Shown piece after piece: positions 21,416 through 64,000 of a DNA stretch of 64,000 nucleotides; position 1 is the stretch's first letter, and the number at the start of each line of letters is the position of its first letter. This DNA comes from an uncultured Acidobacteriota bacterium. Its GTDB lineage: Bacteria > Acidobacteriota > Thermoanaerobaculia > UBA5066. Made by a program: the position numbers and the translations under genes. The DNA lies in the NCBI GenBank assembly GCA_903845115.1, contig CAIMWE010000119.1:828-64827 (forward strand). Direction: 5' to 3'. The notes under the pieces are model-generated. The model did no database searches, was not told where the DNA came from, and saw only the letters and a list, made by a program, of their open reading frames with translations.

Positions 21416-21438
21416 GGCTCTTCTCCGAGCTCAGCCGT

Positions 21439-23765: not shown

Positions 23766-23890
23766 ATTACCCAGCCCCCTTCTCTCCGAAAGGATCGAAT
23801 CCCGGGTCATCCCGCAGCCCTTGCTTTCGAAGCCCCCTACGAAGAACCCTCGAATGGACCCCAACCGTTCCCTTCCACGCTATGGGGCGC

Positions 23891-24271: not shown

Positions 24272-27200
24272 TCAGCCCCTCTCGAGAATCCGCTCCGCCT
24301 CCGAGACGCTCACCTCGCCCTCCGAAACGTGCCGGAGAAGCGAGCGGATCCACTCGTCCCCGGCAACCCCGGCAGCCTCGGCATCCCCCGCGGCCTCGCC
24401 GCCAGTCGTTTTCTGCCCGACAGGCTTCCGGGCAGGCTCCGCCCCGGGGGGGAGGCCGGGCCGCGCGACGACGTACCGGACGAGCTGCCCCACGGTGGGG
24501 TGGTCGTAGAGGTCGGTCGGCTTCAGCTCCGCCCCCAGGCTCTCGCCGATCGACCGGGCAACCTCCGCGGCGAGGAGGGAGTCGATCCCGAGGTCGGTGA
24601 AGGGAGTCGTGTCGTCGATCTGTCCGGCCCCGAGCTCGAGAACCTTCGCGACGCTCGACACGACAGCGTCCCGGACCCTCGTCGAGGGCTCCCCCGAGGC
24701 AGCCGCGCCGGGCACGGCCATCGCAGCCACGGGTGACTCCGCCAGCGGCTCCGGGGGTCGATCCCGGCCCGCCAGCCGGACCAGGCCGTCGCTGCGGGCG
24801 AGGAGCACTCCCCCTTCTCCCGGCGCCTCCCCTTCCGTCACGAGGGGCTCGAACCCCTCCTCCTCGAGGAGACGCCGCCACTGGGCCGCGGAGGCCAGAG
24901 GGGACGAGGCGATCCTGTTCTCGACGTCCTCGCCCAGCCACCAGCCGTCGAGCAGACCGAACGTGAGGGTGAGGAAGTCCTCGGCCTCGAACGCCTCGTT
25001 CAGGACGAGCCATCCCCCGGGGGCGAGAAGCCCCTTGACCCTCCCGAGGGTCCTCCCCAGGTCCCGCGTGGCATGCAGGACGTTCGAGGCCACGACCACG
25101 TCGAACCGGGCCGCCTCGAACCCTTGCTCGGCGCCCTCGCGCTCTACGTCCAGGAGGCGGAACTCCACGAAGGGGAACTCCCCCCCGAACGCGCTCCGGC
25201 CGTGCGCCAGGAAGGCTCGCGAGACGTCCGTGTAGACGTACTCGACTCGCGGGACCGAGGCCAGCTCCCGGAGGACGAAGACGCTCGTCCCACCGGTCCC
25301 CGCCCCGACCTCCAGGACCCGGATCGGCCCTTTCCCTCCCGCAGCGAGGCTCCTCGCCTCGCAGAGCTCGCGCACGCGCTGCGCCGCGAGCCGGTTCGCG
25401 GCATCCGCGACCGCGTGCCCCCGGTAGATGCCGGCGACCCGCTCCAGGGAGCCGCCAGGGAAGAGGACGTCCGTCGGCTGCGTCCCCCCCGTCAGGATCC
25501 CGGGGAACGCCGCGAGGCAGCTGCCGAGGAGCTCACACTGCGGTGCGACCTCCGGGACCTTGCGACCGAATTCCGCCAGGCGCGCCGCGGCCCCTTCGGC
25601 GTCCCTGCCGACCTCCTCCAGGCCCGGCGAGCCGTTGAAGAGCCCTTCCCGTTCCCTGAGCCACCCCGCCCGCTCGAGCATCGCGAAGAGGGCGGCGAAG
25701 AGCTTGCGCCGGCCGGGGGCGATCCCGAGGCTGCGGAAGAGCTCGACCGGGTCGAGACGCGCTCCTGCGCCGAGAGGGACCCCCATCCGCCGCAGCGTCG
25801 CGACGAGGAGCTCCCGCCCCAGGCGCTCCATCTCTCCCAGCGCGTTCCGGAAGCGGAGGGACGCTTCGTCGTCCCTCTCGCGACGACCGACGGGCGCGAG
25901 ACGCGGTCTGGCCGACGAAGCGGAAGAGGAGGAGGAAGCGTCCGCCGCGAGAGCGTGCGCGACGACGCGCCGGGAGAGGTCCGCTCCCATCCGGGCGAGC
26001 GGTCCGTCGTCTGCCCGGATCGCGAGGACCTGGCGGACGCGAGGCTCGCCGAGGAGCCAGTCGACCGTCGCCATCCCGTCCGCCGTCGAGAGGGAGTGGA
26101 CCCCCAGCGCCGCGAGCCGCGCCCGGTACTGCTCCGTCGCCACGACCCCGACCTCGCCCCAGTAGCCCCAGTTGACCGTCTTGACCGGATACGTCACCGC
26201 GGCCCCGACGGCGGCTGCGAATGCGTCCTCGAACGTGGAGGCCGCCGAGTAGTTGCTCTGGCCCGGGTCGCCCGAGAAGGACTCGGCCGAAGAGAAGAAG
26301 AGGAGAAATTCGAGCGGCTCGGCGCGGAGCGCGTGCAGGAGCGCCACGCACCCCTCGACCTTGGGGGAGAGGGCAGCCTGGAGCGTCGCCTCGTCCATCC
26401 GGTCGACCGTCCGGTCCGCGAGGACGAGGGCCGAATGGACCGCGGCCTGGATCGGCCCGAACCGCTCGCGCCCCTGGGCCACGGCGGCTTCGAGAGAGGC
26501 CGGGACCGAGGCGTCCGCCTGGAAGTAGGCGACCTCGCCGCCGAGCCTCTCGATCTCTGCGATCCGCGCCCGCTGCGCGGCGTCCAGGCTCCTCCGGCCG
26601 ACGAGGACGAGGCGGGACCGGGCGGCAGCCAGGTGGGCCGCCAGCTCCAGGCCGAGCCCTCCGCCTCCCCCGACGATCAGGACGACGCCCCGCTCTGGGA
26701 ACGTGAACGGGACGGGCCTCTCCACGTCGAGGGGAAGGAGGGTCCGTACGAAGCGGCAGCCCTCCCGGAGAGCCACGTCCCCGGCGTCCGTCTCGGCCAG
26801 CTCCGCGCGCAGGGCGGCCGCGAGGGCCCCCGCCTCCTGCGACGGCCAGCGTCCGTCGAGGTCGACGCACCGGACGCGCCAGCCACCGTATTCCCGGGAG
26901 AGCGAGCGGACGAAGCCAGGGAGCGTGCCGGCGAAGGGAGTGGACGGCGGCTCCGAGGAGAAGAGGCGGTGGACGCCCCCCGTCGCCACGAGGATCTCCG
27001 CGGAGCGCGCGCCGCCCTCCCGGAGGGCCTTGACCAGCCGGAACAGCGAGAGGAGACCGGCCTCCTGGACGCGCTGGAGTGACGCGAGGTCGTCGAGCGC
27101 TCCCCCGGCCCGCTGGAGCGCCCCGAGGTGGTAGACGCGAGAGACGCCGTGCAGGTCGCCCCCGAGCGCGCCGACGAGCGCTGCCACGAGGGCGTGCGGG

Positions 27201-30200
27201 TCCGCGGCAGGCACCTCGCGCACCCCGTCCTCGACGCGCGCCACGGAGCCGAGTCGCAGCGTGACGGTCCGCGCCCCTGCGTACGCCCGGGCGAGACGGG
27301 CCGCCAGCTCCTCGGCCCCCTTCTCGGGAGGGAGGAGGACCACCGTGACGCCGCCCGGCTCGCCGGCGGGTGCGGGCCGGAGGCTGCGCCGCTCCCAGCG
27401 GGGAACGTAGAGGAGGCGGTCGGCCGCCGCGCCACGGCGACCCGGCGGCCGTTCCTCCCGCCTGACGGGCTGCCCCTCTGCCGCGCCTCCGCCGATCCAG
27501 TGGCGAACGGGCGCGAACGGGTAGGTGGGGAGCGACACCTTCCGGCGCGGCCCCCGGCGCGCGAGCTTCCCGAAGTCCACTTCCGCCCCCGAAACCCACG
27601 CCTCCCCGACCTTCGAGAGCTTTCCCTTGGCCACCCACCGGTCGAGGAGCTCCCTGACGTCGTCGTCGCCGGAGAGGAAGGGCGTCCCCCGCACCCCGCC
27701 ACGCAGGACCCCCTCCGGTTCCCGCCCCGCGGCCATCTCGACGAGGAGCCCGACGGCCTCTCCGACGCTGCGGGCGACGAACGCGAGCCGCTCCGCCATC
27801 GCCTCCCGGCCATCCTGGAGGGTGAAGGCGACGTTCCCCAGGGTGAGGCCCTCGTCCGCGAGGCGTCCCTCCCCGAGCCTGCGCGAGAGGAACGACGCCA
27901 GCGCGGCGACGCGCGCGTCGAGCCGCTCCCGGTCGCGGGCCGAGAGGACGATCAGCTCCGGCTCCCCCTCGTCCTCGCGCTCACCGCGCCAGGGCGGCTC
28001 GAACTCCTCCACGACGAGGTGCGCGTTGGCGCCGCCGGCGCCGAAGGAGCTGACGCCGGCGCGACGCGGCGGCGCGGCAAGAGGGCCGAGGGAGTCCGGC
28101 GAGGCGGCACGCGGACGCTCCCACGCGGAGAGCTCGCGCTGGACCCGGAAGGGAGACGCCTCGAAGTCGATCTTCGGGTTGAGCTCCTCGGCGTGGAGCG
28201 ACGGGACGAGCTTCCCGTGCCACATCTGCAACAGGACCTTCGTGAGGCCCAGGACGCCGGCTGCGGCCTCCAGGTGGCCCGCGTTCGACTTCGCCGAGCC
28301 GATCGCGCACCAGCTCCGGCCCGGGGCTCCGCCTCCGAAGGCCCTCGTCAGCCCGGCGATCTCGACGGGATCCCCGAGAGACGTGCCGGTCCCGTGCGCC
28401 TCCACGTAGGTCACGGTCCGCGGGTCGACGCCTGCCGAGCGGAGCGCGGCCGTGACGAGGTCCCCCTGCGCGACCGGGCTCGGCACCGTGAAGCCGCTCG
28501 TCTTTCCCCCCGCGTTGATCGCGGAGCCCCGGATCACGCCCCGGATCGGGTCGCCGTCGGCGAGCGCCCGGGCGAGAGGCTTCAGGAGAACCGCTCCGAC
28601 CCCCTCGCCGTCCACGAAGCCGTCGGCGCCCGCCCCGAAGCTCCGGCAGCGCTCGCCCGGCGAGAGCATCCCGGCGCGCGCCAGACGCCTGAAGTGGACG
28701 GGGTGGAGGATCAGGTTGACCCCACCGGCGATCGCGGCCCGGCACTCCCCCCTCCGCAGGCTCTCGCAGGCGAGGTGGATCGCGGTGAGCGAGGAGGAGC
28801 AGGCCGTGTCGACCGCGAGGCTCGGGCCCTTCAGGTCGAAGAAGTAGGAGACGCGGTTGGCGATCGGCCAGTGGGCGGCGTGGGCGTCGGTCACCAGGCC
28901 GCGAGCCGCCGCCTCCGCCGCGAGCCACTCGTAGTCGCCCGCCATGACGCCGACGAAGACGCCCACCTCGGAGCCGAGGGCCGAGAGGTGACGGCGCGTG
29001 AACCCCGCGTCCTCCAGGACGGCGGCGGCCGTCTCCAGAAAGAGGCGCTCCTGCGGGTCCATGGCCGCCGCCTCGCGGGGCGAGATCCCGAAGTAGAGGG
29101 AGTCGAACCGGTCGACGCCCTGGAGGAACCCGCCCCACCTCGGGGCGCCCTCCCCTTCGGCCCTCCAGTCCCACCTCTCCGCCGGGACCAGGCGGATGCC
29201 GCTCCGGCCCGCCTCCAGGCTCTCCCACACCTCGTCGATCGTCGCCCCGAGGGGATAGCGCCCGGCCACTCCCAGGATGGCGATGTCGCCGCCCTCGCCC
29301 TCCCTGGGCCGGGCAGGGCTCGGCAAGGCGAACGGCTGCGGCGCGGGACGCGGGGCCGGCTCCGGGGCCGCCGGGACCGCGGGACCCCGCATCCGGGAAA
29401 GCGCGGCGGCGTGCTCCCGCGCGAAGTAGGTCGCCAGGGCGCCGATCGTCAGGTGCTCGAAGAGAAGCGTGCTCGGCAGCCTTCCGAAGTCCTTCTCGAG
29501 CTCCCTGTTGACGTCGAGGACTCCGAGCGAGTCGAGACCGTAGACGTCGAAGCTGGCGTCCTCGGAGAGCCGCGCCTGGTCGATCTTCAGGACCCGCGCC
29601 AGGAGGCCCTTGACGTAGGCCACAGCGTCGCGCCGGGGGGCGCCGGGCCCCTCGTGACCCGGAGCGCTGTCGACCGGACCCGCCTCGGCCACCAGGACCG
29701 ACTGGCCTCCCCGCGCCAGGAGAGGGTGGCCGGCGGCGAGGTCGTGGACGCGAGAGAAGAGGCCGGCGAAGAGCTCCCTCCACCGCTCCCGCGCGACCAG
29801 GGGGGACCCGGGGATCCGGTTCTCCGCGTCCTCGAAGGCCCACCACCCGGGCGTGAGGCCGAACGTCACCACGGCGAAGTCGTCCAGGACGGTCGCCTCG
29901 CTCACGACGGCCAGTCCCCCGGTCCGGAGGAGCTCTCGCAGGAAGCCGAGCGTCCGGCCGACGCGGGCCGTGGCGTGGACGACGTTGGTCCCGATGACGA
30001 CGTCGAAGCTCCCTCGAGGGAAGCCCTGCCCGGCGGGATCCCGCTCGAGGTCGAGCTTCACCCGCTCGACGGACGGGTAGGCCGAGAGGAACTCCGCCGC
30101 CCGCCTCACGAACGCGGCCGACACGTCGGAGAAGACGTACCGGACGCGCGTGCCGAGAGGAAGGAGCGCGTCGAGGACGGCCCGGGTCGTGGCGCCGGTC

Positions 30201-33200
30201 CCCGCACCGACCTCCAGGATGTCGAGCCGCGCCCGCGGGTCGACCGCGAGCCGCTCCTCGGCGAACCGCTTCACGACCGACGCGACGCACCGGTTCGCGA
30301 GGTCGGCCAGTCCGTCGCCCTGGTAGACGCTCTCGACCAGCTCGGGGGAGCCGGAGGGGAAGAGGACCTCCAGGGCGCTCCGCTTCCCCGTCACCACGTC
30401 CGGCAGGGCGTCCGCGCAGCGGGAGAGGAGGGCGAGCCGCCCGCCCAGCTCCGGGTGGCGCTCGGCCAGCCGGTCCGACCCGGCCGCCGGCCCGGCGGTC
30501 GGGGTCTGCTCCCCGCGCGGCACCTTCCCGGCGAGGCCGAGGAGCGTTTCGACGAGCGGCACGTAGGCCGGCAGGAGGCCCAGGCGGTGGCGCCACCCCT
30601 CTTCCGGGACGGCGGATCCCGGGCGGAGGACCCCGAGCGAGAGGAGCGCCTCGAGGGCCGCGCGACGGGCGATCTCCTCGAGCCGGGCGCGTCCGGACTG
30701 GAGCCGGTTCCACTCGTCCAGGTCCCGGGACGGCAGGGGCACCGCCGTGACGAGCTCCAGGAGGGAACCTTTCGCGCCCCTTCCGTCGGAAGCCCCCCGC
30801 GGCTCGCGCAGGACCAGCCCGGTGACGGTGGCGCAGACCTCTCCCTCGAGGCCGGCCACGACGGCGTCGAACCGCCCTTCGCCCCTCCTCGCCACGAGGG
30901 CCCTGGCGCCGGCCGGGACGGGACGATGGACCGTGAGCTCGTCGAGGCCGAACGGGAGCATCGTCCTCACCCGGCCGTCCTCGCCCCTTGTCAGGACGGC
31001 GGTCGCCTGGAGCGCCGCGTCGAGGAGCGCCGCGGGGAAGGGGTCGGCCGGGAGCGACTCCTCCTCGCGCAGCGTGGCGAGCGCCTCGTCCCTGCCGAAG
31101 AGCACCCGGGTGAGACCCCGGAGCGCCGGCCCGTACCGGACGCCCGAGCTCTCCATCAGCGCGTAGAGGGCCTCCCCGGTCAGGAGCTCCCCCATCCGCG
31201 CCGCCGCCGCGTGGAGATCCACGGGCGGCACTCCCGCCGGAACGGGCTCGAGGGCTCCCTCGGCGTGGAGCGTCGCCTCGCCCGACTCGACCCGGAAGCG
31301 GACCGCATCGGCTCCGTCGAGGACCAGGCGGACCCTGACGGCGGTCTCGGTCCCTTCGACGACGACCGGCCGCAGCCAGGCGACGCGGACGACGCGGAGG
31401 ACGCCAGTCTCGCCGGGACGCTCCCCCGGGAGAAGGCCTTGCCGCCGGGCCTCCGTGCGCGCCTCGACCGCCGCACCCAGGAGGACCATCCCCGGAACGA
31501 CCAGCCGACCCTCCACCTCGTGGTCCCGCACGACCGGATCCGAACGGCGGAACGTCCGGTGGAGGACGAATTCCTCCCCCCGCCGGCGCGTCTCCGGCGG
31601 CTCGGCTCCCGCTGCGAATCGCGCGACCGCCCCCTGCGGCGCCGCAGCCCAGCAGCGTTCGCGCTCGAAGGGGTACGTCGGCAGCGGGAGGCGCCGGCCC
31701 CGTCCGCCCAGCCACGGATCGAGGCGGAGAACGACCCCGGCGGTGTAGAGGCGAGCCAGCGCGACGAGCTTCTCCCGGAGCCGCTCGCCGGAGAGCCGCG
31801 TCGACACGATCTCGGAGACGATCCTCTCGCCCTCCTCCTCCATCCCTGGGCCCGGCGGATTGGCGGTCCGGAGCGCGTCGAGCGCCCCCGGAGCCGAAAG
31901 GCGCGACAGCTCCCGGCGGAGCTCTTCGAGGCTCTCGGCCACGAGACCCACCCGGAGCGGGAAGTGGACCCGGCTGGCCAGGGTGAACGCCACGTCGCCC
32001 ATGCGCGCGCTGGCCCCCTCCTTCGAGAGCCAGCCCAGGAGATCGGAAACCCGCCTCTCGAGCGAGCCCCTGGTCTTCGCGGAGAGGAGAAAGAGCTGCG
32101 GGCCCTCGGAAGCGGGAGCGGGAGGGAGCTGCGGCGCTTCCTCGAGGACGAGGTGGGCGTTCGTCCCGCTGAACCCGAACGAGCTGACGGCGGCCCGGCG
32201 CGGCACTCCCGGCTCGCTCGCCCATTCCGCGAGGCGCGTGCTGACGAAGAACGGGCTGTCGGCGAGCCGCAGGTGCCTGTTCTCCCGCTCGAAGTGGAGC
32301 GACGGCGGGATCTTCCGGTGCCGGAGCGCCATCAGGACCTTGATGACGCTCGCGACGCCCGCGGCTGCGGTCGTGTGCCCGATGTTCGTCTTGACGGATC
32401 CGAGCGCGCAGAACTGCCTCCGGTCTGTCCGCTCGCGGAAGGACTTCGTCAGCGCCTCCACCTCGATGGGGTCTCCCAGCTTGGTGCCGGTGCCGTGCGC
32501 CTCGACGAGCGTGATCGTCCCCGGGTCGACCCCGGCCCGACGGTAGACCCGCGTCTCCAGCTCTGCCTGCGAGCGCGCGCTCGGAGCCGTGAGGCCGTTC
32601 GAGCGGCCGTCCTGGTTCACGCCGGAGCCCCGGATCACCCCGTAGACGTGGTCGGAGTCCGCCAGGGCCTCGGAAAGGCGCTTGAGGACGACGACGCCGA
32701 CGGCCTCTCCCGGCACGAAGCCGTCCGCACGGTCGTCGAACGCCTTGCACCTGCCGTCGGGAGCCAGCATCCCGGCCTTCGTCATCTCGACGTAGGCGTC
32801 CTCGCCGAGGTACAGGGTGACCCCGCCGGCGAGGGCCAGGTCGGTCTCCCCGGCGAGGAGGCTCTGGCACGCCAGGTGGATCGCCACGAGCGACGAGGAG
32901 CAAGCCGTGTCGACGGCGATCGCGGGCCCCCGGAGGTCGAGGGCATAGGAGACCCGGCCGGCGAGGATCGAGTGGGCGTTGCCGAGCATCTCCTGCGCGG
33001 GGCGGGAGCCGTCGAGCCGGTCGCGGTACCGGTCGCTTCCCGTGACGCCGACCCAGACCCCCGTCGAGGAGCCGGCCAGCCCGTCGGCCGAGTACCCCGC
33101 GTCCTCCAGCGACCGCCACGTCTCCTCCAGGAAGAGGCGCTGCTGTGGGTCCATCAGCTCGGCGTCCGACGGCGAGATGCTGAAGAAGAGGGGGTCGAAC

Positions 33201-36200
33201 CGGTCGACGTCGGCGAGGAACCCTCCCCACCGGCTCGTGCTGGTACCCGGCCGGCCGGGGTCCTCGTCGAAGAGGCGCGTGGAGTCCCACCGCTCCGGCG
33301 GGACCTCCGTGACGGAGCAGACCCCGGCCGCGAGGTTCGCCCAGAATTCGCGCACGTCGGCCGCCCCCGGGAAGCGCCCGGAGCAGCCGATGATGGCGAT
33401 GTCGCGCGAGGGAGCCGCCCCCGGGGACGGCCCGCCCTCCCCTCCCGGCCCGGACGAGGCCTCGACCCGGGAAACGTCCGCGACCTCCCGGTCCGGCAGG
33501 AGGCCATGGAGGTGCCGGGCGAGGGCCTCGAGGGTGGAGTGGTCGTAGAGGGTGCTCGCCGCGAGGTCGAGACGGAGCAGCCGGCTCAGCTCGCGGACGA
33601 ACTCGACGCCCAGGATGGAGTCGACGCCCAGGTCCACGAAGGCCCTGGTGGGAGCGAGGCGGGACGGCTCCACGTAGAGGACGGCCGCGAGCGTCTCCGC
33701 CAGCATCTCCTGCAGCTGCGCCGGGGAGAGCGCCGGGAGCGGCGCGGAAGGACCGGAGGGAGCGACAGCCAGCTCGGGAGCAGCGGCGGCCTCCGGAGCG
33801 GCGGGGAACGGGAGCGTCTGCGCCCCCGCTTCCAGAAGGTGCGTGGTGAGCCGGGCGAGGGTTGGGTGGTCGTAGAGGTCGGTGGCCCTGAAGCTCCGGC
33901 CGGTCATCCTCTCGACCTGGCGCGCGAACTCCACCGTGAGGATCGAGTCGAGCCCCAGGTCGACGAAGGGTCGGTCCGCGTCGAGCTTCGCCGCGTCGGC
34001 GTAGAGGACGGAGGCGAGCTCTTCCTTCAGGCGCGCGGCCAGGCCGGCTCGGCTCTCGCCGCGCGGCTCGCCCGTTCCTCGCGCGGCCGGCGGCGCGGCC
34101 GGCGGGACCAGCGGAGCGGGAGGGGTTGAAGGCGGCTCGGGCCGACTGGCGCCGGCGGGCTCCCGTTCCCCGGCCAGCGGCCGCAGGACGAGCCTGCCGG
34201 CCGCCACCCTGCGGGGAGCCTCGGCGGCGCCGGCACCGTACCTGACGTCCTCGAACGGGTGGCCCGGAAGCGGGATCCGGCGCCTGCGCCCCGTGTGAAG
34301 CGGGTGGAGCGGCTTCCAGTCGACGGCTTCGCCCCCTTCCCATCGCCGGGCGAGATCCGAGAGGTCCGAGGCCCCGGCAGCGTTGCTGGTGCCCGGAATC
34401 GAGGGCAGCCGGTGGGAGCCCCCCGCGGCGACCGCGAGGAGCTTCTCGCGGAGCTCGGCAACGCTCGCGGCGACGATGGCGACCCGCTCGGCCATCGCCT
34501 CGCGCCCGGCCTGGAGCGTGAACGCGAGGTCGTGCAGGAGGACGCCCCGGCCGGCCTCTCCCTCCAGGAAGGCGGCCAGCTCGCGGCACTGGGCGACGAG
34601 GCGCGGGCGGTCGGCCGCCGACAACGGGACGAGAGCGGCCCCTGTCCCGGCCGTCCGGGCCTCCTCGAGGTGCTCCTCGAGAACCACGTGGGCGTTCGCC
34701 CCGCCGAACCCGAAGGAGCTCACTCCCGCCCGCCGGGGGACGGGGGCGCCGTCGCTCCCCTCCAGCCGGCCCCATTCCTGGTTCTCCCGGACGAGGTAGA
34801 AGGGGCTCTCTCCCAGGTCGACGAGGGGGTTGACCTCCTCGTTGTGGAGCAGCCCGGGGAGCTTTCCGTGGCGCATCGCCAGCGCCACCTTGACGACACC
34901 CGCCACGCCCGCCGCCGCCTCGAGGTGCCCCAGGTTCGTCTTCAGGGAGCCGATGCCGCACGTGGGGCGAGAGGGCGGAGGGAGCCCCCGCCTCTCGTGG
35001 AGCGTGGTGAACGCTGCCTTGAGCCCGTTGACCTCGATGGGGTCGCCGAGCGCGGTACCGGTGCCGTGAGCCTCCACGTAGGTCACGGTCCTCGGATCCA
35101 CGCCCGCAGCGCTCTGCGCCTCGACGATCAGCTCCGCCTGCGCCCGGGGGTTCGGCGAGGTGAGCGAGTGGGTGCGCCCCCCGTGGTTCTCGGCGGTCCC
35201 GAGGATGACGGCGTGAATCGTGTCGCCGTCCGCGATCGCCTCGGAGAGAGGCCGCAGCAGGAGGAGCGCGGCCCCCTCGCCTCTCACGTAACCGTTGGCG
35301 CCCCGGTCGAATGCCCGGCAGCGTCCCTCGGGGCTCAGCATGCGCCCCTGGCTGAGCGCCACGTACGAGAGGGGGCTCAGGATGACGTTCACGCCGCCGG
35401 CGAGGGCCGCACGGCACTCCCCCCGCTGGACCGAGACGACGGCGCGGTGAAGGGCGACGAGCGAGCTCGAGCACGCCGTGTCCACGGTGGCGCTCGGCCC
35501 GCACAGGTCGAAGAGGTACGAGATCCGGTTGGCCAGGACCGCGTGCGAGAGCCCGGAAAGCGTGTGGGGCGTGACCGGCGCCCCGCGGCGAAAGACGGTC
35601 TCCTCGAAGTCGAATCCGGAGGCCCCCACGAAGACCCCGGTCCGCGTCCCGGCGAAGGAGGAGGGGGCGTGGCCGGAGTGCTCGAAGGCCCGCCAGGCGG
35701 CGCGCAGGAGGAGCCGCTGCTGGGGGTCCATCCGCTCGGCCTCGCGCGGGGAGATGCCGAAGAACGCCGCGTCGAAGGCGTCGACGTCGGGGACGAAGCC
35801 TCCCCATCGCGACACGCTCTTTCCCTCCTCCCCCTCGCTTCCCTGGATGGCCTCCGCTTGCCAGCGCTCGGGAGGGATCACCGAGATGAGGTCGGTGCCG
35901 TTCCAGAGATGCTCCCAGAGCTCGTCCAGGGTCGCGGCGCCCGGGAAGATCCCGCCGATCCCGACGATCGCCACCGGCTCCGGCCTGCCGCCGCCCCCGT
36001 GCCGCCCGCCGGAGAGAGCCCGCGCGTCCGCGGTCTCCAGGCTCTTTGCCTGCCGCGAGAGGAGGTGGCTCGCAACGCGCCGCAGGGTCGTCTGCTCGTA
36101 GAAGAGGGTCGCCTCGACGGGGGTGTCGAACCGGCGGCTCAGCTCCGCCGCCAGGGCCGTGAACCGGACGGAGTCGACCCCGTATTCGCCGAGGGGGCGG

Positions 36201-44385: not shown

Positions 44386-44389
44386 CCGT

Positions 44390-45136: not shown

Positions 45137-45146
45137 GGATTCCTCC

Positions 45147-45920: not shown

Positions 45921-45931
45921 GGCAGGCCCCC

Positions 45932-47164: not shown

Positions 47165-47167
47165 GGG

Positions 47168-48445: not shown

Positions 48446-48699
48446 GGACTCTCCCCTCCCCCGAGGTGGCGGTGCAGGACGTCCACGAGCCCCTGGAGGT
48501 TCGAGACGCCGTGGAGCTCGACCCGGGGAATCCGCAGGTCCAGCTGCTCGAGGACCGCCATCGAGATCTCGACCCGGTCCACCGAGTTCGCGCCCAGCTC
48601 CAGGAGGGAGACCCCCGGGACGACCGCGTCGGGGCTCACGTCCACGAGAACCTCGAGGACCTTCGCCTTCACGACCTGGAAGATCATCTCGCGCGTCAC
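48442..48699 (-). CDS. Free-standing acyl carrier protein (AcpK-like donor ACP of the beta-branching cassette)
   Basis: C-terminal 85 codons of track ORF 48442..49707. GTG 48699 is in a GTGA overlap with a GGAGGAG RBS. LLELGANSVDRVEISMAVLEQL carries the phosphopantetheine Ser. Confidence 0.75.
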   Translation of the reverse strand: MTREMIFQVVKAKVLEVLVDVSPDAVVPGVSLLELGANSVDRVEISMAVLEQLDLRIPRVELHGVSNLQGLVDVLHRHLGGGESP

Positions 48700-51375: not shown

Positions 51376-51403
51376 GGCAAGTGCCCGATCGTCGCCGTCA
51401 CCG

Positions 51404-53413: not shown

Positions 53414-54290
53414 CCGGCGAGTCTACCTTCCAGGGCGAGCAGCTTCGAGAGCCGGGCGGCGACGAGGTCGAGGCCGGGCGGCATCAGCAGGCTGAAGTGG
53501 TCGCACGGGACCTCCACGACCTCGAGCCGGGTCCGGATCACGTCGCGCCAGGGCCCAACCGTGTCGTAGGACGCGAACGCGGCCAGCGAGGCCGGCTGCG
53601 GATCGACGCCTTCGAGGACGAAACCGCGTGTCGAGCGGAAGTAAAGGACGTCGGAGGCGTCGTACGGCCGCACGGCGTGGACGCGGAAAGCCTCCCCGGT
53701 GAAGTTGCTCACGTCCGTCGCCCCCTTGAGGCACCTGTACACCTCGTCCTCCGAGAGCGAGAGCCTGCCCCGCTCGCGAATCAGCGGCACGAGCGCGCCG
53801 AGCTGAAGGTGCGGCAGGACGCCCTCGAGATCGGCCATCGTGAGACGGGCCTGGCTCCAGTTCTCCGAGGCCAGGAAGAGGTTCGCGAGCATGACGCGGC
53901 TGAGGCCGCTCTCGCGGAGCCCACCGAAGACGGCTTCCACCTCGGGCGTGTTCGGGTAGGTGTCGAGGAGGACGAGCCGCTCCACTCTTTCTCCGGCCTC
54001 GTGGAGGAGGCGCGCGGCTTCCATCGCGACGACGCCGCCGAGCGAGTAGCCCCCCAGGACGTAGGGCCCCCGGGGGACGGCCCGGCGGACGCACTCGGCG
54101 TAGTGCGCCGCCATGTCGGGGAGGCGCATGAACGGGAGGGCCCGCCCGTCGACTCCCCGGGCCTGGAAAGCGAAGAGCGGGTACTCCTTCCCCAGGGCCG
54201 AGGCGAGGGACCTGAAGACCCCGGCGAACCCAGGAGCGCCGTGGACCCAGAAGGAGGCCCGGCGCCGGCCGGAGCGGTTGATCGGGACGA
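53410..54290 (-). other. C-terminal thioesterase domain of megasynthase B
   Basis: SFWVHGAPGFAGVF, nucleophile elbow GGYSLGG (~nt 54030-54050), distal VPCDHFSLL His block. Confidence 0.85.
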
Positions 54291-57200: not shown

Positions 57201-60200
57201 TCTCCTCGCGGCCGACCTGGAGAGTGAAGGCCAGGTCCGCGAGGGGCGGAAGGCTCTCCTCCTCCCGGCCCAGGAACCCGGCGAGCCCGCGGACGGCCTC
57301 CGCGAGCCGCTCCTCGTTCCGGGCCGAGACGACGATCAGCTGGGGTTCCGGCTCCTCCCGGTCGAAGGGGGGCGGATCGGGCTCCTCGAGGAGGACGTGC
57401 GCGTTGGCGCCGCCGAAGCCGAAGGAGCTGACGCCCGCGCGCCGGGGAACCTCCCGCCCGTCCCGGCCGGTCCGCCGCGTCCAGGGACGCCGCTCGCGGA
57501 TCACGTCGAACGGGCTCCCGTCGAGGTTCAGGTACGGGTTCAGCTCGGTCGCGTGGAGGGTCGCGGGGAGGACGCGGTGCCGCATCGCGAGGACCATCTT
57601 CAGGACGCCCGCGACGCCGGAGGCCGTCTCCAGGTGCCCGATGTTGCTCTTGACCGACCCGAGCCCGCAGGTCGGAGCCGGAGCGCCGTCGGGGCCGGGT
57701 CCGAAGCGCGCGAAGGCGCTCTTCAGGCCGTTGACCTCGATCGGGTCTCCCAGCTCCGTCCCCGTCCCGTGCGCCTCGACGTATCCCAGCGTCTCGGGGT
57801 GGATGCCGGCGAGCCTCCACGCCTCCTCGAGCAGGTCCGCCTGGGCTTCGGGGTTCGGGGCCGTCAGGGAGGCGGCCCGGCCGCCGTGTCCTGCGGCCGT
57901 GGCCAGGATGACGGCCCGGACGGTGTCCCCGTCGGCGAGTGCCCTGTCGAGCGGCTTGAGGAGGAGGGCCCCCACCCCCTCGCCTCGCACGTAGCCGTCG
58001 GCCGCGCTCGAGAAAGCCTTGCACCGGCCGTCGGCGCTCATCATCCCCGCCTTGCTGAAGCCGATCGCCATGGTCGGGCTCAGGATGACGTTGACGCCCC
58101 CCGCGATCGCCAGGTCGCACCGGCCGCTCCGGAGCGCCTCGACGGCGTGGTGGATCGCCACCAGAGAGCTGGAGCAGGCGGTGTCGACGGGCTCGCTCGG
58201 ACCGCGCAGGTCGAGGAGGAACGAGATCCGGTTCGCCAGGACGGCGTGGGAGATGCCCGTCGAGATCTGGCTCTCGACATCGTCCACGCGGGCGCGGATC
58301 AGCTCGGAATAGTCGGAGGAGGCCACCCCGACCCAGAGGCCCGTCCGGCTCTTCGCGAGGTCCGAGGGGCGGTAGCCCGCATCCTCGATCGTCCTCCAGA
58401 CCGTCGTCAGGAAGAGGCGTTGCTGCGGGTCCATGAGCGCCGCCTCCTTCGGCGAGATGCCGAAGAAGAGGGCGTCGAAGCGGTCCACCTCCGGCATGAA
58501 GCCGCCCCACTTCGCGCGCGTCTTCATCGCCTCGGTCCCGGGGTCGCCCCAGACGGCCCGCCAGTCCCAGCGGTCGGGCGGGATCTCGGAGATCAGGTCG
58601 GTCCCCGCCTCGAGGTGCCTCCAGAACTCGTCGAGGTCGCGCGACCCCGGCAGGACGCCGCTCGCCCCGATGATCGCGATCGGCGCGGCCCCCCGCCCAC
58701 GTCCGGCCGGGAGCGGGCGCCTCCGGGGCGCCCGGAGCGACGCTCGGGAGCCGCCGGCTTCCCCCTCGCGAGGCCGGGCCGACACGAGGTGCCCCGCCAG
58801 GCGCGAGATCGAGAAGTGCTCGAAGAGGTCGGCCGGAGTGATCGCCCCTCCCTCCGACGCGTTCACCTCCCTCGAGAAGGCGACGAGGCTCGTCGAGTCG
58901 AAGCCGTAGGCCGTGAAGTCCCGGCGGACCGGGACCTCCGACGGGTCCATCTTCAGCATCCGCGCCGCGACCGCGCGGAGCCGCTCCTCGACCCGCTGCC
59001 GCTCGGCCTGGTCGGCCAGCGGGCCCGCCTCGCCAGGCAGGGGAGGAGCCGGATCCTCCGCAGCCGGGAGAGAGCCAGCGGCTGCCGGCCGCGTCGACAG
59101 GCCGCGGATCGTGGCCACGCTCTCTCCGGCCTCGTCCCGGATCTCGACGTCGAACCGGGCGTTCCCTCCGGACCGTGAGGCCGCGGGGCTGGACGTGACG
59201 GACGCGACGGCGGCGGCGGGAATGCGACGGCGGATCTCCACCTCGTCGATCCAGAAAGGCAGCGAGAGACCGGACGAGCGGTCCTGCAGCCCCGCCACGG
59301 CCTGCAGGGCCCCGTCGAGGAGGGCGGGGTGGAGGACGAAGCCGTCCGCACCGGCCAGGAGCGCCGCGTGGAGACCGAGCTTCGCGCTCGCGAACCCCTC
59401 TCCGGCCGCGACGGACCTGACCGTCCGGAACCGCTCGCCCAGGGAGAGCCCCGCCTGGGCGAACGAGCGGTAGAGCGAGTCGCCGTCGACCTCGCCCCGG
59501 GACGTCCCGTCCTGCCGGGGCGCCTCGGCCGGCGGCTCGCCGGGAAGAGCCGGATCCCAGTGGAGGAGGCCGCTCGCGTGGACGCTCCCGGACGGCAGGC
59601 CGACCACCTCGAACTCCGCTCCGTCGTCCCCGGGAACGAGCCGGATCTCGACCGTGCACCCCTCCTCGCCGGGCGGAGCCGCCAGCGGAGCGAGGAAGGC
59701 GAGATCTCCGAGCCGCACCACGGGCCGGCGCGCCGCCAGCTCCCCTGCCGCACGCGCCATCTCGACGAGGGCCGCCGCCGGGAGGACCCTCCGGCCGAGG
59801 ACGACGTGCTCGCCCAGGAAGAACTCGTCACCGGTGAAGGTCGCCTCGAACGAGATCCCCTCGAACGACGACGTGTTGCGGTGGACCAGCGGGTGAAGCG
59901 CGCCGGGAGAGCCCGGTCCGCTCGTCGGCACCGTCGGGGCGGGGCGGGGAGCGTCCAGCCAGCAGCGTCGCCGGGCGAAGGGGTAGCCGGGCAGGGAGAC
60001 CCGGCGGCGAGCGCCCGTCCGGCGCAGCGCCCTCCAGTCGACCGGGACGCCCCGGACCCAGAGGCGGCCCAGCTCGGCGAGGTCGCGGCTGGCCAAGGCC
60101 CCACGGACGGACTCCGGGTCCGCAAACCCCGTCGAGTCCTCCTCGCAGGACCCACGCAGGGCACCTTCCCACCCCCCTTCCGCGAAGGACTCGAGCCTCC

Positions 60201-63200
60201 GGCACAGCTCCTCGCGGCTCCCCGTGACGAAGGCGAGCCGCTCCTCCATCTCCTCCCGTCCCGTCTGGAGCGTGAAGGCCACGTCGGCGAGGGCGGGAGG
60301 AGCCAGGAAGTGCGCCCCGGGCCGGTCGAAGCGGGCGAGGTGGGCGGCCAGCCCCGCTGCCGAGGCCCGCAGCCGCTCCTCGTCGCGCGCCGACAGGACG
60401 ATCAGCTCCTCCCGCTCCGGAGCCTCCTCCGGCGGCGGGGCCGGGCCTTCCTCCACGACGAGGTGCGCATTGGCGCCTCCGGCGCCGAAGGAGCTCACCC
60501 CCGCCCGCCGGGGCGTGCCCGGGGGGCCGTCCCAGGCGGCCAGGCTCTCCTGGAGAGTGAACGGCGTCGAGGAGAGGTCGAGCCTCGGGTTGAGGGGCCG
60601 GGCGTTCAGGGTGGGGACGAGCTCCCTGGCCTGGAGCTGGCAGAGGACCTTGGTCAGCTGCGAGATGCCGGACGCCGCCTCGAGGTGGCCCAGGTTCGAC
60701 TTCACCGATCCGATCGAGCAGGGTCCGTTCCACCCCGCCTCGCTTCCGAAGACCTTCGCGAGCGCCGCGACCTCGATCGGGTCCCCGAGAGGAGAGCCGT
60801 TGGCGGCCAGCTCGAGGCAGGAGATGGAGCGGGCCGGCACCCCGGCGCGCGCGAGCGACGTGGCGACGAGGTCGGCCTGCGCGGCCGGGCTCGGCACCCG
60901 GAAGCCCCCGGTCTTGCCTCCATGGTTGGCGGCGGTCGCCAGGATGACCCCGTAGACGAAATCCCCCTCCTCCAATGCCTCGCGCAGCGGCCGCAGGAGC
61001 ACCGCGCCGACTCCCTCCCCCGGCACCATTCCATCCCCGTCCCCGAGGCTGCGGCTCTCCGGGTGGCTGCCGAGGAGGCCCACCTCGGAGAGCGCGAGGT
61101 ACTTCCCGGGGTGGAGCGAAAGGTTGACGCCGGCGACGATGGCCGCGCCGCACTCCCCGCTCCGGAGGCTCTCGCAGGCCAGGTGGACGGCCGTGAGCGA
61201 GGACGAGCAGGCGGTGTCGACCGCGAGGCTCGGACCTTTGAGGTCGAGGACGTACGAGACGCGGTTCGCGATCGACCAGTAGGAGCCGCTCGAAAGGCAT
61301 CCCCTGAGCCCGGGGTCGCGCGCCAGCAGCGGGTACTGCCGGTACATGCAGCCCACGTAGACGCCGACGCCCCCGGCCAGGCGGGAGAGCTCGCGGCGCG
61401 TGAACCCCGCATCCTCCACGGCGTGCCAGACCGTCTCGAGGACGAGCCGCTCCTCGGGGTCCATCCGCTCGGCCTCCGCGGGAGAGATCCCGAAGAAGAG
61501 CGGGTCGAACCGGTCCACGTCGTCGAGGAAGCCCCCCCGGCGACTGCGGCTCCCCCGGAAGCTTTCGTGCGTGGCGTCCCAGCGGTCCCGGGGAACGTCC
61601 TGGATGCAGCTCCGCCCTCCCCGCAGGTTCTCCCAGAGGTCCGGGACCGTGGGGGACGCCGGATAGCGGCCCGCGAGGCCGACGACGGCCACCTCGAATC
61701 GCGAGGCGTCCCGCGAGACGCCTCCAGGCCTTCCTTCCGGGACCGGAGCAGCGGTCCGGGGGACGACGGAAGGCTCCTCCTCCGTGGCAGCGGCTGCCGC
61801 CACGCCGCTTCCGCCTCCGATCCGGCGGAGCGCTTCCGCGTGGCCTTCCGCCAGGAGGGCGCCGAGGGCCTCCACGGTCCCGTACTCGAAGAGGAGCGTC
61901 GCCGGGAGCGGTCCGAGGTCCCGCTCGAACCTCGCGACCAGTTCCTGCGCGACGAGCGAGTCGATCCCGTACCGCTCGAAGGTGGCCCGGTCGCCGATCC
62001 GGCCCGCCGGAATCCGGAGGACCTCGGAGAAGACCGACTTCACGTAGCTCCGGGCGAGCCCCGGAAGGTCCTGGCCCGGGAGGCCCACGGGACCTTCCGC
62101 CATCGAGGGAGAAGGCGGCTCCACCGGCTCCGGAGCGGCCCCGGCCGAGGATCCGGCGGGGCTCGCCGCGCCCGCGTTGAGGCCGTCGCTCTCGGCGACG
62201 ATCACGCTCTGCGAACGGAGCTCGCTCCCGGCCTCGCCCGCCGGCGAAAAGCTCCGGATGCTCCGGAAGCCCCCCTCGAGGAGGAGCGCCTCCCAGCGCG
62301 CGCGGTCGAGGAGGGGAGAGCCGGGCAGCCGCTCGGCCTCGTCCTCGAAACGCCACCAGCCGCGGGTCAGGCCGAAGATGAGGGTCGCCGACCCGTGGCT
62401 GACGGTCACCTCGTTGACGACCAGGAGCCCGTTCGCCCGGAGCGGCCTCTTGACGTGCGAGAGGGTGGCCCGGATGTCGCGCGTGGCGTGCAGGACGTTG
62501 CTCCCGAGGACGAGGTCGACGCTGTCCGGCGGGATCCCCTGCTCCTCGGCAGGGCGCTCGAGGTCCAGGAGACGGAACTCGACGAACGGGTGGGCGGCTC
62601 CGAAAGAGCTCCGGCCGTGCTCCAGGAAACCAGCGGACACGTCGGTGTAGAGGTACCGGAGCGGGCCCCCCGCGTCCGCCAGGGCCGGGAGGACGAAGGA
62701 GCTGGTGGACCCCGTCCCGGCCCCCACCTCCAGGATCGTGACCGGCCCGGCCGGGTCGAGCCTTCGCCGCTCGTCCACGTACGCCCGGACGAGGCGGGCC
62801 ACGAGCCGGCTGCAGGCGTCCGCCTGGACGTTTCCCTTGTAGATCTTCTCCACGAGCGAGATCGAGCCGCTCGGGAAGAGAACCTCCATGTGGTTCCGCC
62901 TCCCCGTGAGGACGTCCGGGTAGGCGTCCAGGCAGTGCCGTAGGCAGTGAGCGTGGGCCGCGAGGCCTGGGTGAGCCGCCACGAGCACCGCCTGCCCGCG
63001 GTCGGGATCGCCGAGCTCGGCGAGGAGCGCGAGGTCGTCGAGGACGGGAAGCGATTGCACCTTGCCGCCTCTCCGCTCGAGGAAACCCGCCTTTTCCAGG
63101 ATGGAGAGGAGGGACTCGAAGAGGCGGGAGTACTCCGGCACGATTCCGAGCCGGTCGGCGAGGATCGCCTCGGAATGGACCTCTCCCGGCTCGAGGAAGA

Positions 63201-63279: not shown

Positions 63280-64000
63280 CGGGGAGCTCCTCCGTCGCCA
63301 GCCGGCTCAGCGTCGAGCTCAGAACGGACGGGATCCGCTCCGGGTAGCGCTCCATGCGGGAGGGGGACGGAAGCCCGATCGACCGGAGGAACCGGGGTTC
63401 CCCCTTCACCGCGACGAGGGAGTCCGGGGAGCCGGCCGAGAGCGCCACGTCCACCACGCCCATCCCTTCCTCGGGCTGGATGGAGTGGACGCCGAGGGAC
63501 GCCATCTGCCGGCGGTACGCCTCCGTGGCCACGGCACCCACGCTCCCCCAGAAGCCCCAGCGGATCAGCTTGACCGGCAAGGAGAGCCGCTGGCCCAGGG
63601 CGTGGGCCCAGGCGTCCTCGAACGTCGACGCGGCGGCGTAGTTTCCCTGGCCGGGATTCCCCATGAGCGACTGGACCGAGGAGAAGAAGAGCAGGAAGTC
63701 GAGTGGCTCGCCCTCGAGCGCGAGGTGGAGGCCCATCGACCCGCTCACCTTCGGGGCGAGGACCTCCCGGAGCCCGTTCCCGTCCATTGCCGCCAGGCGG
63801 GTGTCTCGCAGGACCAGCGCCGAATGGACGGCCCCCTGGATCGGGCCGAACCGCTCTCTGCCGGCCTTCACCGCGCCGCGCAGGCCGCCCGGGCTGGCGA
63901 GGTCGGCCGGGACGTAGAGCGCCTTCCCCCCCGCCCGCTCGAGGGAGGTGATCGCCGAGAGGATCTCCGCGTCGGGCTCCCGGCGCCCCACGAGGACGAG
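63269..64000 (-). CDS. trans-AT PKS megasynthase C, C-terminal ketoreductase domain only (N-terminus beyond the right window edge)
   Basis: The frame stays open to nt 64000 (LVLVGRREPDAE...). HSALVLRD and GQGNYAAASTFEDAW are KR catalytic motifs. The stop at 63269 lies 11 nt inside the start of PKS B. Confidence 0.85.
   Translation of the reverse strand, partial: LVLVGRREPDAEILSAITSLERAGGKALYVPADLASPGGLRGAVKAGRERFGPIQGAVHSALVLRDTRLAAMDGNGLREVLAPKVSGSMGLHLALEGEPLDFLLFFSSVQSLMGNPGQGNYAAASTFEDAWAHALGQRLSLPVKLIRWGFWGSVGAVATEAYRRQMASLGVHSIQPEEGMGVVDVALSAGSPDSLVAVKGEPRFLRSIGLPSPSRMERYPERIPSVLSSTLSRLATEELPDGE

Follow-up and report, generated by a model that had tools for sequence, protein, structure and literature searches.

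What does a long run of megasynthase and accessory genes in an uncultivated bacterium make, and is the product already known from another organism? The genes in question lie on the minus strand of the window (the whole stretch of DNA that was analysed, 64,000 nt), where 13 consecutive reading frames extend from 24272 to beyond 64000, as established by ORF listing, translation, and start and stop checks. In transcription order, from PKS C to the NRPS-PKS protein A, the gaps between neighbours are -11, -4, +28, -4, -4, -4, -4, +3, +11, +10, +4, and -4 nt, the same range as reported in an earlier note on this DNA. The domain strings given there for A and B were both reproduced when Pfam was run on overlapping 700-aa pieces of A, B, and C (the small proteins being searched whole), and the cluster is indeed open at the right edge, beyond which the PKS C gene continues. 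The region is a real, intact, and very large gene cluster for a hybrid peptide-polyketide, built from well-known parts. More specifically, an uncultivated freshwater bacterium of high GC content very likely carries here a trans-AT PKS-NRPS cluster that is intact and co-transcribed, with an uncharacterised, N-terminally formylated, methyl-branched peptide-polyketide as its predicted product. Three megasynthases frame the block:

24272..42997, minus strand: NRPS-PKS A, 6241 aa, read from Pfam pieces, specificity codes, and KS motifs
53410-63279, minus strand: PKS B, 3289 aa, read from Pfam pieces and from KS, DH (HxxxGxxxxP, DxxxQ), and KR motifs
63269 to beyond 64000, minus strand: 3' end of PKS C, of which the KR tail (Pfam KR E 7e-36) and the C-terminal linker lie inside the window

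The assignment to the trans-AT type depends on the absence of AT domains from the megasynthases, for which the earlier note had seen no candidate in any KS module. The HMM check agreed: Acyl_transf_1 had no match at E up to 1e-4 in the 700-aa pieces of A, B, and C (for C, the part within the window), and comparison of the two free AT-like proteins with A, B, and C by blastp and phmmer returned nothing below E 0.06. All five KS domains are followed by KAsynt_C_assoc, RhiE-like_linker, and CurL-like_PKS_C matches, that is, by remnants of KS-to-AT linkers. The corresponding activities are encoded by separate genes:

50518-51375, minus strand: free-standing malonyl-type acyltransferase (trans-AT); closest in the PDB to DisD (E 5.5e-97), then to PksE and PksC
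49667-50521, minus strand: phosphopantetheinyl transferase (PPTase), 284 aa, similar in size to Sfp; matches Pfam ACPS (E 8e-10) and, weakly, 4PPT_N
48696-49670, minus strand: AT-like acyl hydrolase of the PksD type (proofreading), 324 aa; PksD homologue 8avz E 8.9e-59
42994-44385, minus strand: trans-acting enoyl reductase (ER) of the PfaD family; TIGR02814 666.7 bits against a cut-off of 449, with Pfam NMO and FabD_helical_ins

The free AT also passes the NCBIfam FabD model TIGR00128 (311 bits, cut-off 261). With an AT of the DisD/FabD type encoded separately and none integrated in the megasynthases, the system is, as judged from its sequences, a trans-AT PKS, as had been proposed. Two discrete ATs had been claimed; the first stands as the trans-AT, but the second is a PksD-type acyl hydrolase, whose best PDB match (8avz) scores far above any true AT. 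Its start was set as called on sister contigs, giving 324 aa; a 334-aa ORF was rejected as too long, since it would run 34 nt into the PPTase gene. The PPTase had no NCBIfam match. The ER is of the PfaD type, as noted earlier, with TIGR02814 well above its cut-off. A PUFA synthase, which a PfaD-type protein might suggest, was considered and rejected: PfaA-C-type genes are absent, and trans-AT systems usually have a trans-ER of this kind.

Protein A, with the domain string F-deltaC-A1-PCP-C-A2(Gly)-PCP-KS-ACP-ACP-KS-DH-cMT-ACP-KS-KR-cMT-ACP, comprises the initiation region plus the first five modules. Both adenylation domains pass TIGR01733, and with GrsA as the ruler (which returned DAWTIAAICK) the specificity code of A2 is DILQLGVIWK, from which A2 is predicted to load glycine. 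The KS2-DH-cMT-ACP module has a DH without a KR, and the protein ends in an ACP, without a TE. Its N-terminal 600 aa share at most 40% identity with their best database matches. These residues hold the starter:

42080..42940, minus strand: formyltransferase (F) domain, aa 20-306, FMT/ArnA type with C-terminal subdomain; Formyl_trans_N and Formyl_trans_C (PF00551, PF02911)
41228..42079, minus strand: deltaC (earlier C*), aa 307-590, the C-terminal lobe only of a condensation domain; recognised by homologue profile

F domains initiate the linear gramicidin, rhizopodin, oxazolomycin, and conglobatin assembly lines, where the PCP-bound amino acid is formylated (PMC4504003). The domain in A has the formyltransferase fold and the catalytic Asn, His, and Asp expected of such a starter: its AF2 model (pLDDT 88.8) matches FMT and ArnA with Foldseek TM 0.8-0.85; N109, H111, and D147 align to identical residues of the WbkC N-formyltransferase; and across 36 homologues H111 never varies and N109 is kept in at least 90%. 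The earlier reading of the start as F-C*-A was right about F, a C-like stretch, and A in that order, but C* is half a condensation domain. Pfam found no match, Condensation included, on the deltaC stretch alone, whereas a profile of 20 homologues aligns (E 1e-27 to 1e-30) with residues ~197-475 of three condensation domains, those of Txo2, Txo1, and McyB. A full condensation domain has both lobes, with HHxxxDG in the N-terminal one; here the F domain takes the place of the N-terminal lobe. Neither is F fused directly to A1, as in LgrA, since the 284-aa half domain lies between them. A truncated C-like domain before the starter A domain is required for catalysis in ACV synthetase (PMC7884236). 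At E up to 1e-30 the F-deltaC-A family counts 1378 cluster representatives, the best 150 of which nearly all span residues 20-600; this putative starter is thus widespread in databases, and no description of it as a module was found among the papers retrieved.

Downstream of the starter, A appears to be equipped for beta-branching, the enzymes for which are encoded next to it. All five parts of the cassette (donor ACP, Cys-to-Ser KS, HMGS, ECH1, and ECH2) are contiguous at 44390-48699:

48442-48699, minus strand: free ACP, AcpK-like; Pfam PP-binding, and PRK07117 at 76.2 bits against a cut-off of 79
47168-48445, minus strand: decarboxylating KS, Cys to Ser, PksF-like; PRK07103 E 1.6e-129
45932-47164, minus strand: HMG-CoA synthase homologue (HMGS); Pfam HMG_CoA_synt_C and HMG_CoA_synt_N
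45147-45920, minus strand: ECH1, a dehydrating crotonase, PksH-like; Pfam ECH_1 E 3e-41, PRK07112 E 1e-68
44390-45136, minus strand: ECH2, a decarboxylating crotonase, PksI-like; PRK07110 322.8 bits against a cut-off of 215
33509..35980, minus strand: KS-ACP-ACP module of A, aa 2340-3163; two PP-binding stretches, no reductive domain, KS catalytically intact

The Cys-to-Ser exchange and the presence of HMGS, ECH1, and ECH2, all claimed before, were recovered: the discrete KS aligns GASGSG with the DTACSS of the other KS domains, and the remaining three are contiguous genes with Pfam or NCBIfam matches. The 80 best relatives of the HMGS all lie in PKS loci. The KS-ACP-ACP module is the probable acceptor of the branch. 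A Trp six residues after the Ser is the flag of beta-branching ACPs, and both tandem ACPs of A have Phe at that +6 position.

PKS B, with the string cMT-ACP-KS0-DH-ACP-KS-DH-KR-ACP-TE, contributes the terminal modules and the release domain. Its first KS had been called a KS0, and this proved apt: the active-site Cys is kept, HGTGT is replaced by AANGS, and the DH motifs of the same module are intact.

58786..61695, minus strand: KS0-DH-ACP, a non-elongating dehydrating module of B, aa 529-1498, read from KS and DH motifs

All three KRs are of the B-type, including that in the tail of C (motif LRD), and the DH and KR motifs are intact. The rightward extension called for in the earlier note was obtained in part from a longer scaffold of the same population (L167), whose gene table gives PKS C a length of 6732 aa and places PP-binding and DH matches ahead of its first KS. 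The size of at least 40 kb claimed before thus holds as very large but is raised: given the length of PKS C on longer scaffolds of this population, the cluster spans at least 60 kb and probably more. Since C begins with PP-binding and DH before its first KS while A ends in an ACP, at least one link between A and C must lie out of view, and we infer the assembly order A, unseen PKS, C, B. The exact product of B has no database record; searches with the C fragment and with the N-terminus of B gave only matches shorter than about 910 aa, and the N-terminal 520 aa of B share at most 44% identity with their best matches.

Between B and the free AT lies a gene with no part in chain assembly as proposed below:

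51404-53413, minus strand: UbiB/ABC1-family atypical kinase or ATPase, 669 aa; Pfam ABC1 E 5e-61

It had been described as a UbiB-type kinase. Membership in the Pfam ABC1 family stands, but the protein falls below the NCBIfam cut-offs for UbiB (TIGR01982, 260.8 bits against 487.55; PRK04750, 207.6 bits against 667) and has a weak match to the NCBIfam MABP-1 model; these scores place it in the ABC1 family and not with housekeeping UbiB. Its closest PDB entries are mycobacterial macrolide-binding ATPases (7cy2, 5yjz), and two hydrophobic helices are predicted near its C-terminus (hydropathy peaks at ~574-595 and 640-662). These UbiB-family proteins, MABP-1 and MSMEG_1954, bind polyketide macrolides and confer resistance through their ATPase activity (PMC6208485). 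Most likely, the cluster protein would act as a membrane-anchored ATPase that handles the lipophilic product, either in self-protection or by handing it over to the membrane or an exporter, a role suggested by weak homology (E ~1e-21) together with gene linkage.

Taken in order, these parts outline a single pathway. The PPTase would prime all carrier domains, and A1 would load the first amino acid on PCP1, where the F domain may formylate it with formyl-tetrahydrofolate, the half condensation domain between F and A serving as a structural platform. The C domain would then add the glycine loaded by A2; KS1 would add malonate, supplied by the trans-AT, onto the tandem ACPs; and the HMGS cassette would turn the beta-keto group into a methyl-type branch. 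Two alpha-methylated units would be added by KS2-DH-cMT-ACP and KS3-KR-cMT-ACP, after which the chain would move to the PKS proteins right of the window, i.e., C and probably one more. Finally, the cMT-ACP of B would complete the last module of C, KS0-DH-ACP would dehydrate the intermediate, KS-DH-KR-ACP would add the final enoyl unit, and the TE would free the finished chain, either as an acid or as a macrolactone.

The same genes could instead serve two assembly lines in one operon, with A making a short N-formyl-dipeptidyl triketide that is released otherwise, C and B making a separate polyketide, and the trans enzymes being shared. The ending of A in an ACP without a TE, and the opening of C, by which A and C do not dock directly, are in line with this arrangement, as is a related cluster (L006) with an A-like gene and the cassette, where neither a B-like nor a UbiB gene occurs within 10 kb upstream. 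However, A and C would be bridged if one more PKS lay upstream of C, and the single TE seen is that of B. From B to A the genes are closely coupled in translation by 4-nt overlaps, and the F-domain starter, the only starter module in view, suits a single line. We therefore regard two lines as quite improbable and retain the single pathway from A to B.

Is this pathway already known? When one genome for each of 185,579 GTDB species was scanned with the HMGS, the best match shared 72% identity and came from a MAG cluster whose layout is partly shared; no close copy of the cluster was found among these species representatives. HMGS proteins from loci of Bacillus, Nostoc, Cuspidothrix, Corallococcus, and Streptomyces, organisms known to carry characterised trans-AT clusters, were 51-61% identical and the layouts of these loci differ. 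A single orthologous cluster was found, on another MAG contig (L086), where B is 68% identical (KS0 78%, last KS 87%) and is followed by the UbiB-like gene; the domain order is the same, and the orthologous PKS C holds a second tandem ACP pair. When KS domains were compared across the related loci, only the L086 orthologues stood out, which gave no guide to KS clades. The cluster is very probably uncharacterised, and the species scan and the sole MAG orthologue support, though they do not prove, a new product.

The strongest case for a copy of a characterised pathway with a known product is made by bacillaene (pks/bae of B. subtilis and B. velezensis), likewise a trans-AT system with a free AT (PksC/PksE-like), a PksD-type acyl hydrolase, an AcpK-like ACP, a PksF-like Cys-to-Ser KS, HMGS, ECH1, ECH2, and a trans ER, and with tandem ACPs for beta-branching, a role that the tandem ACPs of A probably share. 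In the bacillaene operon the accessory set precedes a hybrid NRPS-PKS, the second module of which takes Gly just before the first KS; the accessory set here, in its order AT, acyl hydrolase, ACP, KS, HMGS, ECH1, ECH2, and hybrid NRPS-PKS with a Gly module, resembles that front, and the matches to PksD, PksE, and PksC and to PksF-, PksH-, and PksI-type NCBIfam models point the same way. Against this, homologue identities are only about 40-60%, and the Bacillus HMGS match (51%) appears to sit in a different Bacillus cluster. To our knowledge, the bacillaene synthase has no F domain or F-deltaC-A starter, no cMT domains in these positions (three here), no KS0-DH-ACP, no terminal TE on a B-like protein, no separate PfaD-type ER gene after ECH2, no embedded PPTase gene, and no UbiB-like gene. 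Together with the HMGS identities and differing layouts above and the low identities of the N-termini of A and B, this makes a known pathway very improbable, and an uncharacterised one remains our reading.

GC3 is at least 0.9 in the coding frame across the entire 13-gene block. Many independent contigs from lake metagenomes carry the same locus at 99.6-99.99% identity, and none of its reading frames is interrupted there. The 64-kb window showed no tRNA or Rfam features, and when the stretch downstream of A was scanned, no terminator came up on the minus strand. That the cluster is decaying or silent and yields no product, for which one may cite an uncultivated organism and the failure to identify a promoter or terminator within the 64-kb window, is hardly credible against ~40 kb of unbroken frames at 73-75% GC, intact catalytic motifs wherever checked (KS, DH, KR, and F), near-identity across many samples, and a 68% identical orthologue with the same domain order.

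If expressed, the cluster should yield a new hybrid peptide-polyketide from a lineage without cultured members, and it is a good lead for genome mining and natural-product discovery. The starter, with well over 1000 protein clusters, allows wider testing, as does the UbiB-family ATPase; lying within a polyketide pathway and conserved along with it, this protein could link a poorly understood family to the handling of lipophilic secondary metabolites. A more far-reaching reading, which we consider rather unlikely, is that this cluster and its L086 orthologue represent a new family of N-formylated, heavily C-methylated peptide-polyketides of uncultivated, probably anaerobic freshwater bacteria, with F-deltaC-A as a distinct initiation device and the UbiB-like ATPase as a new cluster-encoded product chaperone or self-resistance factor. 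Neither F-deltaC-A nor the UbiB linkage overturns current understanding; cluster type, enzymology, and logic are textbook trans-AT PKS biology.

Among solved structures, the free AT is closest to DisD, the trans-AT of the disorazol synthase, and the alignment runs over the full length; we know of no HMGS cassette in the disorazol cluster. MABP-1 (Rv3197) and MSMEG_1954 are the closest solved relatives of the UbiB-like protein, matching its kinase-like core only; MABP-1 has no transmembrane regions, in contrast to the two C-terminal hydrophobic helices here. The rhizopodin starter carries an N-methyltransferase domain, whereas Pfam found none in the NRPS part of A. F-initiated lines (LgrA, rhizopodin, the oxazolomycin/phthoxazolin trans-AT systems, and conglobatin) likewise have an N-terminal F in the initiation module, acting on the PCP-bound first amino acid (PMC4504003, PMC5764310), but here a ~280-aa half condensation domain parts F from A. 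Sequence searches with this F domain, which falls among the WbkC, ArnA, and FMT enzymes, did not bring up LgrA. Further, where formyl-glycine is followed directly by a KS in such lines, the module next to the formylated residue here is a second NRPS module, for Gly. Because this is C-A-PCP and not a KS, an oxazole like that of oxazolomycin is not expected, and such a reading was considered and rejected. The C* of ACV synthetase is likewise a truncated condensation-like domain that precedes the first A domain, and it is needed for catalysis even with no upstream donor (PMC7884236); here, by contrast, a formyltransferase precedes the half domain, which belongs to a separate, widespread F-deltaC-A family.

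Thirteen consecutive genes run on the minus strand from position 24272 to the right window edge, as established by ORF listing and translation, with a coding-frame GC3 of about 0.9 throughout the block in a window of 67-75% G+C. They are separated by -11, -4, +28, -4, -4, -4, -4, +3, +11, +10, +4 and -4 nt; starts and stops were checked directly, and the values match the range of -11 to +28 nt proposed in the earlier note. Its gene map stood as to the 13 genes and their spacing, the sole coordinate change being a revised start for the second acyltransferase (AT)-like gene, now as in the gene callers' calls on sister contigs. The left cluster boundary is placed at 24272 because the flank codes for primary metabolism. 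The main features are:

1-23864: left flank, with genes for aldehyde:ferredoxin oxidoreductase, iron alcohol dehydrogenase, GGGtGRT protein, MoeA, a binding-protein-dependent ABC transporter with TOBE domain, serine dehydratase and thiolase
24272-42997, minus: NRPS-PKS A, 6241 aa
48696-49670, minus: second AT-like gene (acyl hydrolase, AH), 324 aa
53410-63279, minus: PKS B, 3289 aa, cMT-ACP-KS-DH-ACP-KS-DH-KR-ACP-TE (Pfam)
63269 past the right edge, minus: PKS C, whose 242 residues within the window are a KR tail (Pfam)

Copies of this locus, 99.6-99.99% identical, are present in the NCBI MAG GCA_903906115.1 and in numerous metagenome contigs from stratified lakes, the longest of them 212 kb. 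On the 118,254-bp ENA scaffold ERZ18626419 BUCK21-1_SAMEA6872779_METAG-scaffold_33 it matches positions 43,468-65,477 in reverse orientation, with some 32 kb of further sequence past PKS C. PKS C is complete on one such lake-metagenome scaffold (6732 aa), where its first recorded Pfam matches are PP-binding and DH, ahead of the first KS. The cluster, previously put at 40 kb or more and open on the right, is indeed open there, and the length of PKS C raises its size to at least about 60 kb. A has an ACP at its end, and for this reason one or more further PKSs upstream of C probably bridge A and C. Compared with window positions 40545-61375, one variant of the locus (L004) shows 53 mismatches and 11 gap openings in 20.9 kb; its AH has 333 aa against 324 aa in other variants; the remaining contigs carry 1-10 mismatches each. 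The L004 differences represent microdiversity within the lake population.

Within the left flank, positions 13890-23864 encode a periplasmic binding protein (PBP_like_2), a permease, an ABC ATPase with a TOBE domain, MoeA, a NifU-like protein, the GGGtGRT protein (E 2e-191), iron alcohol dehydrogenase and aldehyde:ferredoxin oxidoreductase. This block points to anaerobic metabolism of aldehydes and alcohols dependent on tungsten or molybdenum, and hints at an anaerobic or facultatively anaerobic host. Further left, a single 757-aa ORF (9284-11557, minus) joins AA_permease_2 (residues 72-471) to a C-terminal SBP_bac_3 (residues 535-749); fusions of secondary transporters to family-3 solute-binding domains are uncommon. 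At 1-3388 (minus), the left edge truncates a large ORF that encodes a PKD domain and the beginning of an FGE-sulfatase (formylglycine-generating enzyme-like) domain. Two high-GC3 ORFs (11600-13276 and 13382-13861, both plus) have no confident family, one of them giving only a weak metallo-beta-lactamase-fold match (E 1e-4).

The megasynthases were mapped with Pfam on overlapping 700-aa pieces. In A, Pfam places the following domains (residues), apart from one stretch with no match:

69-306: Formyl_trans_N and Formyl_trans_C (F)
307-590: stretch without Pfam match
594-1074: A1
1125-1189: PCP
1233-1673: C domain
1695-2196: A2
2246-2312: PCP
2340-2718: KS
2989-3054: ACP
3099-3163: ACP
3198-3570: KS
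3807-4064: DH
about 4261-4362: cMT
4461-4524: ACP
4571-4936: KS
5437-5614: KR
about 5872-6051: cMT
6111-6176: ACP

The search for integrated AT domains, whose detection the earlier note had named as a refutation of the trans-AT reading, returned no Acyl_transf_1 match in A, B or the in-window part of C (Pfam, 700-aa pieces), and comparison of the two free ATs with A, B and C by blastp and phmmer found nothing. Each KS is followed by KS-to-AT linker remnant families (Pfam). The lack of an integrated AT in these proteins, together with the remnants behind each KS, confirms the trans-AT assignment.

The discrete enzymes fit known families. The free AT is nearest to DisD, PksE and PksC (E 5.5e-97 to 4e-83) and scores above the FabD cut-off. 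The second AT-like protein has PksD, the bacillaene acyltransferase homologue, as by far its nearest match (E 8.9e-59; next match 1e-33); PksD is of the proofreading acyl-hydrolase type of trans-AT systems. The enoyl reductase (ER) scores above the PfaD-family cut-off, the PPTase matches ACPS (Pfam), and the models matched by ECH2, ECH1, the Cys-to-Ser KS and the free ACP are presumably of the PksI, PksH, PksF and AcpK types, respectively.

Catalytic residues were read for the KSs from an alignment of six sequences. The three KSs of A and the second of B have Cys, His and His intact; the first KS of B keeps its Cys and has AANGS instead of HGTGT, and the discrete KS has Ser at the active-site Cys position. 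By these motifs the former is a non-elongating KS0, and the latter is the decarboxylase type of beta-branching cassettes; the KS0 and the Cys-to-Ser exchange had both been noticed before and are borne out here. HxxxGxxxxP and DxxxQ are retained in each of the three DH domains, as are Ser, Tyr and Asn in each of the three KR domains, whose Asp as third residue of the 'LDD' motif marks them as B-type. Adenylation codes were extracted with a GrsA ruler, which was validated by its return of the canonical DAWTIAAICK. It gave DILQLGVIWK, a glycine code, for A2 and DLF(Q/A)VAGVLK for A1, and both domains pass the NCBI amino-acid adenylation model.

The sequence itself shows which parts are present, that catalytic motifs are intact and that integrated ATs are lacking; beyond this, we infer the following route. 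The PPTase would prime the carrier domains, A1 would load a first amino acid, F would formylate it on PCP1, and the C domain would add glycine. KS1 would then add trans-AT-supplied malonate on the tandem ACPs, where the HMGS cassette (free ACP, Cys-to-Ser KS, HMGS, ECH1 and ECH2) may put in a methyl-type beta-branch; of the two tandem ACP pairs, either is a candidate for the branch. Two alpha-methylating modules would follow, the first of them (the second PKS module of A) having a DH and no KR. The chain would go on via PKS proteins outside the window and C, and the split module KS-DH-KR/cMT-ACP would be completed on B. There, KS0-DH-ACP would dehydrate the intermediate, KS-DH-KR-ACP would add a last enoyl unit and the TE would release the product. 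The ER may reduce at least one enoyl intermediate in trans, and AH would clear stalled units.

In a survey of one genome per species (185,579 species), the best HMGS match (72% identity) lies in a MAG of 60% G+C (L006). Its genes run AT, AH, ACP, KS, HMGS, ECH1, ECH2, ER and then a megasynthase that is 38% identical to A and runs collinear with it over residues 20-2500; the 10 kb upstream hold no B-like, UbiB or PPTase gene. A metagenome scan yielded one true orthologue (L086, JADHED010000025.1; 65% G+C), in which B shows 68% identity from end to end (KS0 78%, last KS 87%), a UbiB-like gene directly follows B, and the PKS C tail before B reads KS-MT-ACP-KS-DH-ACP-ACP-KS-DH-KR. G+C in the window is 73-75% in the megasynthase genes, 69-71% in the accessory genes and 67-73% in the left flank. 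That the cluster belongs to an already characterised pathway seems unlikely from these comparisons, because loci of organisms known for characterised trans-AT clusters give matches of 51-61% and differ in layout, and because the best database matches reach at most 40% for the N-terminal 600 aa of A and at most 44% for the N-terminal 520 aa of B. The cluster is an orphan trans-AT PKS-NRPS of standard parts, and the earlier reading is judged correct as a whole. Openings for novelty are left in the conserved UbiB-like ATPase and in the starter family of A.

The UbiB-like protein has a clear ABC1 domain (Pfam), yet scores well under the NCBI UbiB cut-offs, and carries two C-terminal hydrophobic helices. 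Among solved structures it is nearest to MSMEG_1954 and MABP-1, macrolide-binding ATPases of mycobacteria, followed by COQ8; MABP-1 binds macrolides and confers resistance via its ATPase activity (PMC6208485). In an unrelated Victivallales MAG (L009, 6164-6958), a homologue with 45% identity is found next to an HMGS cassette. Given these macrolide-binding relatives and this linkage, weak as the homology is, we propose that the protein may handle the product or serve self-protection. Three other unrelated MAG loci, L009 and two from Acetobacteraceae (L070 and L074, at about 17.4-19.2 kb, 25-26% identity), have UbiB/ABC1-like genes no more than 10 kb from HMGS cassettes, which suggests a recurrent link of this family to trans-AT PKS clusters.

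The starter region of A (residues 1-600, window 41198-42997) has a widespread architecture, F-deltaC-A, in which deltaC is the stretch labelled C* in the earlier note. Submitted alone, residues 307-590 gave no Pfam match. Even so, numerous database proteins share the whole of the N-terminal 600 residues at 30-40% identity: with a threshold of E 1e-30, an exhaustive search retrieved 1378 cluster representatives, and among the 150 best almost every one spans residues 20-600. Most matches are the N-terminal portions of NRPSs 1200-1600 aa long; some carry a luciferase-like monooxygenase domain (PF00296) ahead of F, one being named a 'MupA/Atu3671 family' monooxygenase. Solved condensation domains (Txo2, Txo1, McyB, EntF and LgrA; E 1e-27 to 1e-12) aligned to a profile of 20 deltaC stretches only over about their own residues 197-475, so that residues 307-590 of A are a condensation-domain C-terminal lobe, the N-terminal lobe with HHxxxDG being absent; C* is narrowed to this one lobe. 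In a confident AlphaFold model built with a homologue alignment (pLDDT 88.8, pTM 0.85), residues 1-310 fit both methionyl-tRNA formyltransferase and the ArnA formyltransferase, C-terminal subdomain included (TM 0.8-0.85), and N109, H111 and D147 of F, conserved across the family, are identical to residues of the N-formyltransferase WbkC. The F-deltaC-A architecture is not described in the papers retrieved. The assembly lines for gramicidin, rhizopodin, oxazolomycin and conglobatin begin with F domains (PMC4504003), and ACV synthetase, like A, has a truncated C-like domain ahead of its starter A domain, where it is required for catalysis (PMC7884236).
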